Source: a virus
DNA length: 17,776 nucleotides
Virus record (IMG/VR): IMGVR_UViG_3300031965_001155
Coordinates: 1 to 17,776 of that record
Direction: 5' to 3' (one strand)
The notes beneath the pieces were generated by a model that ran no database searches, had not been told where the DNA came from, and was given only the letters and a program-made list of their open reading frames with translations. Within the stretch, counting starts at the first letter, position 1. Every line of letters starts with the position of its first letter. A program made the translations under genes and the position numbers. Of this stretch, positions 3,548 to 4,061 are shown one piece after another.

Positions 3548-3834
3548 TTTCTTTTATATCTTCTTGAATGTTTTTTAGTAGTTTCCCTTTTTTCTATTTT
3601 GTCTAAGTTATCCATTAAACTATTTAGATTAAAAGTCATATTCTTTAAGCTAATTAAGTGATTTTGTAAAAATTCTCTTTTCTTTTCTTGTTCTTTAGAA
3701 ACTATGTAAAAGATTAAACAAATTCCCGTGGACATTAATAAACCTAATGCACTAAAAAAGTTAGGTGTTACAAATGATAAAATAACCGAAGCCATACCAA
3801 AATACCAAAAATCTTTACTATCTACTTTTCTCAT
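3544..3834 (-). CDS. Small membrane protein (96 aa, 2 TM helices plus a charged C-terminal helix)
   Basis: Hydrophobic segments FWYFGMASVILSFVTPNFFSALGLLMSTGICLIFYIV. ATGA overlaps on both sides indicate translational coupling. Confidence 0.7.
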   Translation of the reverse strand: MRKVDSKDFWYFGMASVILSFVTPNFFSALGLLMSTGICLIFYIVSKEQEKKREFLQNHLISLKNMTFNLNSLMDNLDKIEKRETTKKHSRRYKRK

Positions 3835-4061
3835 TTTTCCCCAGGTGAAATATATTTAATTGTATCTCCACGAATAAAAGATAATCCCAAACTTTTTATA
3901 ATTTCTCCTTTTTCGTCTAGTTCTTTCATGTTTTCTAAGACTACGTTTATATGAATATCAAAGGCTAGAAGCTTTCCAGAATAATTTTTATTTTCCTTAC
4001 AATGGACTAAAACTTTCGCCCCTTTTGATTCGTTTAGTAAGTCTAAAGGTCTTTCTACCAT
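3831..4061 (-). CDS. Sm-like archaeal protein (SmAP/LSm family RNA-binding protein), 76 aa
   Basis: ERPLDLLNESKGAKVLVHCKENKNYSGKLLAFDIHINVVLEN plus LGLSFIRGDTIKYISP matches the Sm1 and Sm2 motif pattern (RPLD..L, G.L..FD.H.N.VL, IRGD.I..IS) of archaeal SmAP1 as I remember it. It is the first gene after a leaderless promoter. Confidence 0.9.
   Translation of the reverse strand: MVERPLDLLNESKGAKVLVHCKENKNYSGKLLAFDIHINVVLENMKELDEKGEIIKSLGLSFIRGDTIKYISPGEK

Follow-up and report, generated by a model that had tools for sequence, protein, structure and literature searches.

A SmAP1-type Sm protein gene, apparently captured from DPANN archaea, in a hypervariable slot of a small circular integrase element

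Identity and Fold of the Sm Protein

The DNA analyzed here, the 17,776-nucleotide stretch of IMG/VR record IMGVR_UViG_3300031965_001155 (positions 1 to 17,776, hereafter the window), represents a small circular mobile element. At positions 3831 to 4061, on the minus strand, an open reading frame (ORF) with an ATG start encodes an archaeal Sm-like (LSm) protein of 76 amino acids and of the SmAP1 type, an identification based on Pfam, PDB, AlphaFold2 (AF2) and Foldseek comparisons. A preliminary description of this DNA, made from the sequence alone, had recognized an Sm signature in the ORF, and the motifs are indeed in place in its product, MVERPLDLLNESKGAKVLVHCKENKNYSGKLLAFDIHINVVLENMKELDEKGEIIKSLGLSFIRGDTIKYISPGEK: RPLD (R4 to D7), Sm1 (G29 to L42, G.L..FD.H.N.VL) and Sm2 (I63 to P73, IRGD.I.YISP). 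A hidden Markov model search gave a strong match to Pfam PF01423 (LSM; E=4.2e-18, 65.2 bits against a cut-off of 23.4) covering profile positions 2 to 66 of 66, and 47 distinct Sm/LSm sequences of the PDB match at E<1e-3. The top PDB match is SmAP1 of Methanothermobacter (M. thermautotrophicus; E=2.5e-14), which aligns end to end and with its pocket residues in register. The PHROGs profile search returned no matching family for the protein.

In the Sm fold, a helix at the N-terminus precedes a five-stranded antiparallel sheet that is strongly bent. The AF2 monomer model, built with 37 homologues in the alignment (mean predicted local distance difference test score, pLDDT, 88.8), has this canonical arrangement, with a helix at residues 5-12 and strands at 16-21, 25-34, 40-48, 54-63 and 68-73. 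Foldseek places the model next to the heptameric archaeal proteins SmAP1, Af-Sm1 and Pa-Sm (template modelling score, TM, 0.88-0.92; root mean square deviation, rmsd, 1.0-1.7 Å), and the best structures (TM 0.90-0.92) are heptameric SmAP1 and Af-Sm1 with bound uridine monophosphate or oligo-U, 1loj and 1i5l superposing with an rmsd of 1.3 Å. In the PDB alignment, H37, N39 and R64 correspond to the uridine-pocket residues of SmAP1; for A. fulgidus Sm1 we take this pocket, from established structural work, to be H37/N39/R63. Residues R4, P5, D7, D35, H37, N39 and R64 are the same throughout the 122 sequences compared, namely 15 element copies and 107 others, and D66 is conserved except in one element copy, where Glu replaces it; the RNA-binding residues have thus been kept. 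The ORF encodes a SmAP1-type Sm protein, and that protein looks functional and constrained, with an apparently working uridine pocket.

The Sm Gene Belongs to a Circular Element

The two ends of the window form a terminal direct repeat, positions 1 to 127 being perfectly identical to 17650 to 17776. This 127-nucleotide overlap implies a circular assembly with a unit of 17,649 bp. An identical Sm protein, in an identical gene order, occurs on contigs of 17.7 to 18.1 kb from three further samples or datasets, and the gene has the corresponding position in larger elements (20.8 and 34.7 kb) as well as in an 8.7-kb marine-sediment contig, with an identity of the Sm protein down to 67%. In the window, the gene is bordered by a divergent element promoter on one side and by membrane-protein genes on the other; cellular homologues are found instead in chromosomal S8e/TFB or S8e/L37e neighbourhoods (P0035, P0124 and P0131), where S8e precedes the Sm gene and L37e often follows it. 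The circular unit, the recurring gene order and the different cellular surroundings together place the Sm gene within the element and not in a host flank, as the preliminary description had proposed.

The closest Sm homologues are cellular, which could indicate that the gene is host chromosomal DNA misassembled onto the element, or the host flank of an integrated copy. However, a circular contig leaves no space for flanks, and the same junctions recur in ENA, Logan and JGI assemblies made from different samples with different assemblers. In an alignment with a relative that lacks the gene (L013), Sm moreover appears as a precise 227-nucleotide block extending from the conserved promoter to the ATG of the next gene, which encodes a 96-amino-acid protein. 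Finally, cellular copies differ in neighbourhood, termini and signature residues. An origin as artefact or host flank is rejected and has, in our judgement, a negligible probability.

An Accessory Cassette in a Hypervariable Slot

Relatives of the element were found with its 309-amino-acid P-loop ATPase (4688 to 5617, plus strand) as the seed, a search unbiased toward the presence of Sm. Occurrence was counted over 59 loci with sufficient upstream sequence and slot occupants over 46 loci. The Sm gene is present in 8 of the 59 loci (14%); in seven of these the P-loop protein shares 78% or more identity with that of the window, and none of the group with a P-loop identity of about 47-54% has the gene. 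It is also absent from three genome-collection loci and three IMG/VR contigs recovered with the P-loop seed. Near-identical backbones differ in this respect, since L013 and L019 (P-loop 98% identical) are devoid of Sm and L020 and L021 (97%) carry it. The conservation of the gene among related contigs, a point raised in the preliminary description, is borne out as regards its position, which is the same in several elements, but not as regards its status, which is accessory and not core.

In the 46 loci, 25 unrelated families supply the first leftward ORF, and Sm is the most frequent single occupant (8/46). The slot was located at 6624-6702 in L013, 9199-9360 in L016, 5400-9450 in L018 and 2347-2589 in L041. 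The Sm gene is an accessory cassette, and the slot that it occupies is a hypervariable accessory hotspot. Scanning IMG/VR with a single Sm sequence as the query gave no match; the relatives surfaced only with the P-loop alignment.

Other occupants of the slot are diverse. A 53-amino-acid zinc-ribbon protein (CxxC...CxxC) is found there in L016 and L025, and in L018 the promoter is separated from the conserved genes by an insertion that includes a 352-amino-acid reverse transcriptase (YVDDF, group-II-intron-like) together with duplicated genes of about 150 amino acids. The comparison of L013 with the window also reveals a strong mosaic: the P-loop (98%), 180-amino-acid (91%), 228-amino-acid (94%) and 110-amino-acid (96%) proteins are highly similar, and divergence is much greater for the glycoprotein (68%), the genes at the leftward head (69-74%) and the basic protein (71%). 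This mosaicism implies recombination whose breakpoint lies at the conserved divergent promoter.

Origin, Selection and a Second Capture

The closest cellular proteins, 63-68% identical to the Sm protein of the window, are SmAPs of 81-83 amino acids named Pacearchaeota, Nanoarchaeota or Nanobdellota, on contigs of up to 287 kb; one that was inspected adjoins S8e and TFB. The corresponding element copies (type 1) are each exactly 76 amino acids long, without the N-terminal xNG and the C-terminal tail (ASTALK) and with a one-residue loop insertion. Fixed in these copies are C21 (Leu in 107 of the 107 other sequences), S61 (Thr in 103), K/N69 (Ile in 104) and G74 (Ala in 97). In a joint neighbour-joining tree, the element copies are monophyletic in 93 of 100 bootstraps and have Pacearchaeota-type SmAPs as their sister group, so that the SmAP phylogeny can serve, as the preliminary description had suggested, as a predictor of host or donor. 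The GC content of the element (32%) and that of the candidate host contigs of Pacearchaeota type (31-32%) agree, and one relative was binned in a Woesearchaeota metagenome-assembled genome (MAG), which is weak evidence. On these sequence comparisons, the Sm gene originates from the host lineage.

Type-1 Sm is under purifying selection. Protein identity among the element copies falls to 67% and their synonymous sites are close to saturation; the pairwise ratio of nonsynonymous to synonymous substitutions (dN/dS) among them is 0.07-0.35, or 0.18-0.27 where dS is unsaturated.

A second Sm protein occupies the slot in L041 and L099, diverged members of the family by their P-loop protein (64% identical) and their synteny. 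This 77-amino-acid protein (P0121), whose gene lies about 26 nucleotides from a TATA box, has cellular-type features: a MENGT N-terminus, Leu at the position of C21, no loop insertion and Ile at the position of K69. It is 42-49% identical to type 1 versus 51-64% to SmAPs of 73-77 amino acids of Woesearchaeota type; it groups with type 1 in 0 of 100 bootstraps and exclusively with the Woesearchaeota-type proteins, as their sister, in 72 of 100. Among its closest relatives is P0124 (66%), encoded by a chromosomal gene in an S8e-Sm-L37e arrangement from the same metagenome. P0121 thus represents an independent capture of a Woesearchaeota-like Sm gene into the same slot. That one slot received such a gene twice speaks for its usefulness to the element, and the double capture suggests that control of RNA handling helps these elements.

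The same data bear on whether the gene could be a neutral passenger, recently transferred from the host, functionless for the element and heading for loss. Such a passenger would fit the patchy occurrence of Sm (8/59 loci) and the existence of near-identical backbones, with P-loop proteins 97-98% identical, that carry it (L020, L021) or do not (L013, L019). It would not fit copies that have diverged to 67% identity with nearly saturated synonymous sites and yet retain a dN/dS of 0.07-0.35 and every pocket residue. Nor would it account for a length of exactly 76 codons in all type-1 copies, for element-specific substitutions fixed in the clade or for a second independent capture in the same slot. 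Selection and recurrence contradict the passenger explanation, which we reject as highly improbable.

Promoters, Operator and the Genes of the Leftward Operon

The Sm gene faces leftward from a 79-nucleotide divergent promoter region (4062 to 4140), from which the gene of the 180-aa protein is read rightward. The core of this region is conserved family-wide: in an alignment of eight loci, TTATAA...TTTTGTTAACAAAA...TTATAAA is invariant across family members. In the Sm-less relative L013, the 79-nucleotide spacer directly drives the homologue of the 96-amino-acid membrane protein (TM96). A palindromic TATA box for the leftward transcript, TTTATAAA, lies at 4083 to 4090 on the minus strand with its centre 25.5 nucleotides upstream of the ATG at 4061, and a TATA box of the same sequence, for the rightward transcript of the 180-amino-acid protein and the P-loop ATPase, lies at 4112 to 4119 on the plus strand, its centre again 25.5 nucleotides from the ATG at 4141. 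The archaeal TATA box is usually found at about -26. Given this usual position, the spacing suggests leaderless transcripts in both directions, and the Sm mRNA is probably leaderless and polycistronic with Sm as its first cistron, the start site being deduced from the TATA spacing.

Between the two TATA boxes, the sequence and the eight-locus alignment reveal a perfect 14-bp palindrome, TTTTGTTAACAAAA, at 4098 to 4111, a candidate operator. Its 12-nucleotide core has an exact second copy at 9710-9721, in the repeated promoter block D7; a 54-nucleotide promoter block with the palindrome is repeated there (83% identical) at 9669-9722, upstream of the 228-amino-acid gene. GTTAAC-centred near-copies occur at 412, 10183, 10205 and 17127, between ORFs and upstream of leftward genes, in regions that extend over 405-425, 10183-10216 and 17127-17138. 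The 12-nucleotide core is not enriched window-wide when two mismatches are allowed (8 matches versus 5.2 expected, with 27 of 200 shuffles reaching 8); only its placement in promoter regions is notable. The palindrome is probably a shared operator, possibly for a winged helix-turn-helix (wHTH) protein of 329 amino acids.

Downstream of Sm, the 96-amino-acid protein (3544 to 3834, minus strand) has two hydrophobic segments and a basic tail. The ATG of its gene overlaps the Sm stop codon (ATGA at 3831-3834), and in the Sm-less L013 and L019 the operon begins with its homologue. The 72-amino-acid protein that follows (3329 to 3547, minus strand), present in most relatives, also has two hydrophobic segments, and its gene shows a second ATGA overlap, at 3544-3547, with that of the 96-amino-acid protein. 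Next comes a polybasic protein of 949 amino acids (442 to 3291, minus strand; isoelectric point, pI, 10.9; 25% Lys plus Arg), without a Pfam family and conserved family-wide at 40-71% identity. Its N-terminus is rich in Ser, Thr and Pro, its central region is conserved, and its C-terminal 350 residues reach 33-41% Lys plus Arg with PKKP/SPRS-like repeats. On its composition, it is a candidate genome-condensing or nucleoprotein-like component. In some family members, this protein heads the leftward operon, right behind the promoter. The position of Sm at the operon head, the spacing of its TATA box, the translational overlaps, the two membrane proteins and the basic protein all agree with the preliminary description.

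Cotranscription with the polybasic protein and the membrane proteins could indicate a structural or packaging role for Sm, either as a ring that binds nucleic acid in a particle or as a partner of the 949-amino-acid protein in condensing the genome. Hfq binds DNA and is nucleoid-associated, and this role has been raised for plasmid Hfq-like proteins (PMC3543421). However, L013 and L019, with P-loop proteins 98% identical to that of the window, keep the basic protein, the membrane proteins and the glycoprotein without Sm, other members fill the slot with unrelated small proteins, and the conserved residues of Sm are those of a uridine-specific RNA pocket. As relatives with the same structural genes dispense with Sm, a packaging role is unlikely. 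The patchy distribution leads us to reject Sm as a structural core component, and the structural, ring-shaped nucleic-acid binder put forward earlier is improbable.

All genes from Sm leftward, across the circular junction and down to position 7850, lie on one strand, and a rightward block starts from the same 79-nucleotide region and encodes the 180-amino-acid protein, the P-loop ATPase, a methylase and an integrase. At the far end of the leftward block, a T8-N-T8 run (7821 to 7837, minus strand) is a probable oligo-U terminator. A second oligo-T cluster (T7, T9, T9) at 9719-9745, after the gene of the 110-amino-acid hydrophobic protein, is the strongest in the genome. The proposal that the transcripts of the element are A/U-rich with oligo-U ends thus finds partial confirmation: a GC content of 32% in the window and these T7 to T9 runs, on the coding strand at two transcript ends, speak for it.

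Gene Content and Nature of the Element

The 180-amino-acid protein (4141 to 4683, plus strand) is a rightward core gene product and a family marker, as is the P-loop ATPase with its Walker A (GDRGNGKST) and Walker B (CWDDEA) motifs. At least 466 homologues of the latter exist, all unannotated and none on a contig of more than 37 kb. Its AF2 model (pLDDT 76.8) shows only generic AAA+/RecA/Zot-N (AAA+/ASCE) similarity at E>1e-3, the PDB sequence search gave no meaningful match (best E=0.44) and tblastn against deposited phages gave none. The P-loop protein was rejected as a classifier of the element among spindle-shaped, pleomorphic or other viruses, as PDB searches, tblastn and structure comparison returned nothing specific.

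Further along the rightward block, a Dam-type N6-adenine methyltransferase (6155 to 6598, plus strand) is recognized by Pfam and PHROG matches to Dam. Its position is swapped in relatives, with a C5 DNA_methylase in L002 and L004, both types in L008 and an S-adenosylmethionine-dependent enzyme of Methyltransf_23/25 type in L006, which suggests pressure from host restriction systems. The block ends with a tyrosine recombinase (integrase; 6806 to 7699, plus strand; Pfam Phage_integrase E=3.1e-16, PHROG 1 E=2.5e-25). A full-length tRNA-Met (CAT) at 7736 to 7810 on the minus strand (ARAGORN; Rfam tRNA 65.2 bits), a probable attachment-site region, lies 36 nucleotides past the integrase stop codon, where the two transcription blocks converge. 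It is found at the same place in L001, L002, L006, L013, L017 and L023 and is absent from L004, L008, L015, L016, L018 and L099. This tRNA is probably the attP or tRNA integration target, or a functional cargo tRNA. With its circular unit, integrase and tRNA-associated region, the element fits an integrative mobile element, and the family comprises small circular integrase elements of about 17-35 kb.

The element also encodes many small membrane proteins, and several further products stem from the minus strand. The 110-amino-acid protein (9771 to 10103), with two long hydrophobic helices, is encoded in its own intergenic frame beside the T7/T9/T9 cluster and has a terminator to itself; it is 82-96% identical in close relatives, matches no family and is a candidate major virion protein (capsid or membrane) of spindle or pleomorphic type. 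A protein of 1136 amino acids (10967 to 14377) combines a signal peptide, DUF2341, 42 N-glycosylation sequons (NxS/T) and C-terminal membrane anchors. Of the large genes, the one that encodes it differs most among close relatives (68% identity in L013), and the protein is likely a receptor-binding or spike glycoprotein. Relatives add Laminin_G_3/pentaxin-like domains to this protein (L006, L099). A gene of about 226 amino acids runs across the circular junction (17372-17776 plus 1-403, minus strand); it is split by contig linearization only, the listed ORF of 114 amino acids (17372-17716) being its 3' part, and is called as 226 amino acids in L001 and L002. The last gene of the leftward block encodes an acidic protein of 99 amino acids (7850 to 8149, minus strand; 41% Asp plus Glu, pI 4.05) with a long acidic run at its C-terminus; this protein may mimic DNA or pair with the polybasic protein.

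A VP4-like spike is a hallmark of pleolipoviruses. The hallmarks of spindle viruses are a hydrophobic alpha-helical major capsid protein and an AAA+ ATPase (10.1101/2025.02.15.638363). Outside Sm, Pfam and PHROGs give only Dam, integrase, DUF2341 and weak wHTH matches for the proteins of the element, and none of these proteins, including those of 110, 309 and 1136 amino acids, matches capsid families of Pfam or PHROGs or structures of the PDB. The evidence for a virus is indirect and consists of three relatives with IMG/VR entries and of a gene content with many membrane and glycoprotein genes. The element is virus-like and resembles a membrane-containing virus; its viral nature is unproven.

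Proposed Function of the Sm Protein

We propose that the gene is a functional, captured gene of SmAP1 type whose product would assemble into a heptameric ring, bind single-stranded U-rich RNA through a pocket formed by His37, Asn39 and Arg64, and serve the element in trans, as an auxiliary RNA chaperone or a binder of 3' ends. Its most plausible role would be to stabilize or organize the AU-rich, oligo-U-ended transcripts of the element. With modest confidence, we consider this proposal to be probable. What we infer here from sequence and models is that the protein assembles into a ring and binds RNA, that the transcript is leaderless and that the element benefits.

Several observations weigh against this proposal. 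The protein scores 82 bits against NCBIfam NF001963 (the equivalog 'small nuclear ribonucleoprotein'), under the cut-off of 101, which makes it a diverged member and not the housekeeping equivalog. As 86% of related elements do without the Sm gene, it is dispensable. The fixed residues C21, S61 and K/N69 lie in strands beta1, beta4 and beta5, respectively, and with the loop insertion they imply that oligomer state, partners or specificity could differ from those of cellular SmAP. Heptamer formation and RNA binding are predicted from homology, and the RNA targets may be those of the element or those of the host, either of which fits the present data. Finally, the assignment of the hosts to Pacearchaeota/Woesearchaeota-type DPANN archaea has a limited basis, namely protein similarity, GC content and the single MAG bin labelled Woesearchaeota.

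Instead of serving the transcripts of the element, its Sm protein could be a mimic that subverts host RNA metabolism, either by forming mixed, altered rings with host SmAP or by competing for U-rich RNAs of the host such as tRNA precursors, small RNAs and mRNA 3' ends; host RNA processing would then be redirected or shut down early in infection or after induction. The position of Sm as first cistron behind a conserved promoter, in a slot that hosts 25 families of unrelated small proteins, is typical of accessory host-interaction genes, and independent capture from two host lineages fits a need to match the host. The beta4 and beta5 strands form the subunit interface of Sm rings. Clade-fixed S61 and K/N69 lie in these strands and, like the change in the variable loop, leave the RNA pocket untouched. 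Reciprocally, the interface changes could equally insulate the element ring from the host protein, and a protein with 63-68% identity is no longer a close mimic. On balance, we regard such a host-takeover mimic, the main rival to our proposal, as possible but unlikely. A broader version is that DPANN elements repeatedly take a host Sm gene and evolve from it a dedicated takeover factor, whose altered interface strands and intact uridine pocket would let its ring poison host Sm rings or monopolize U-tailed RNAs. This version is doubtful; if true, archaea and their viruses would compete over Sm-dependent RNA metabolism, and the present case would be the first of its kind among archaeal viruses and would parallel, in prokaryotes, the exploitation of LSm complexes by eukaryotic viruses.

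Returning to the proposed RNA chaperone or 3'-end binder, archaeal Sm proteins are poorly understood, and DPANN archaea and their mobile elements are almost entirely uncultured. A SmAP that is carried by an element, under purifying selection and acquired twice, independently, into one slot constitutes a natural experiment, according to which Sm-mediated RNA handling limits, or is exploitable by, such elements. With a protein of 76 amino acids and a genome of 17.6 kb, it also offers a compact system in which to ask what archaeal Sm rings bind in vivo. Moreover, the Sm gene provides a host prediction for an orphan element family, that of the P-loop marker, and the hypervariable slot beside the conserved divergent promoter is a place to seek additional host-interaction genes.

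Comparison with Known Systems

Cellular SmAP1 proteins, for which the structures of M. thermautotrophicus (1i81/1loj), A. fulgidus Sm1 (1i4k/1i5l) and P. abyssi Sm (1h64/1m8v) were compared, share with the Sm protein of the window a single Sm domain of about 75 amino acids, the RPLD helix, Sm1 and Sm2 and the His/Asn/Arg uridine pocket. Unlike its cellular counterparts, the gene of the window resides on a 17.65-kb circular mobile element and not beside S8e, L37e or TFB, and it is the first cistron of an operon for membrane and basic proteins.

The preliminary description had named no such protein as a characterized component of an archaeal virus, a view that does not hold for the Sm/Hfq superfamily, as related genes are known from Borgs (PMC9879509), from plasmids and Pyrobaculum spherical virus (PMC3543421) and from one casposon, which encodes an Sm-like protein (PMC4046053). 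Most Borgs, the giant linear elements of Methanoperedens, encode Sm ribonucleoproteins (PMC9879509), which resemble the protein of the window as archaeal Sm proteins with preserved Sm1 and Sm2, an extrachromosomal location and an origin in the archaeal host. The linear Borgs are very large, belong to a euryarchaeal methanotroph and carry many host-like genes, whereas the carrier described here is a 17.6-kb integrase circle attributed to DPANN archaea. Tandem amino-acid repeats occur at the N-terminus of several Borg Sm proteins; the protein of the window has none and sits in a defined accessory slot, a distinction drawn by description only.

Plasmids of Thermococcales and Methanococcales (pCIR10, pP12-1, pMETVU01, ECE1/2) encode zinc finger (ZnF)-Hfq-like proteins, and Pyrobaculum spherical virus an Hfq-like variant, which have been proposed to act on the nucleic-acid transactions of the elements themselves (PMC3543421). 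They too are RNA-binding proteins of the Sm superfamily on an archaeal plasmid or virus (PMC3543421). The ZnF-Hfq-like proteins belong to the hexameric type; they usually carry a C2H2 zinc finger at the N-terminus, and their genes lie downstream of a replicative helicase gene. In contrast, the Sm protein of the window is of SmAP1 type, unfused and without a zinc finger, and its gene has membrane-protein neighbours at the head of a morphogenesis-like operon.

Among 72,556 plasmid and 50,697 phage or archaeal-virus records, no SmAP-like gene was detected at E<=0.01. In BFVD, an 'RNA binding protein' of Gordonia phage Reyja and an 'Sm-like domain-containing protein' of Synechococcus phage S-CAM3 resemble the Sm model; phage Sm-like or Hfq-like barrels are remote relatives only (TM 0.59-0.74, 9-20% identity, E no better than 3e-4). 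The recent surveys of DPANN and archaeal viruses that were consulted make no mention of Sm, LSm or small nuclear ribonucleoproteins (snRNP), a description in Wu, Liu & Ni (Nat Microbiol 2024) being still possible. In its genetic behaviour, the Sm gene recalls virus-encoded auxiliary genes and the moron-type accessory slots of temperate phages, as a host-derived, discrete cassette placed after a promoter, variable among syntenic genomes and under purifying selection. It differs from them in that its cargo is a putative RNA chaperone and not a metabolic, toxin or defence function, and in the unproven viral nature of its carrier. Host-derived genes of the Sm/Hfq family on archaeal mobile elements are thus already known, and the element described here adds DPANN hosts, a precise accessory slot and two captures into it.

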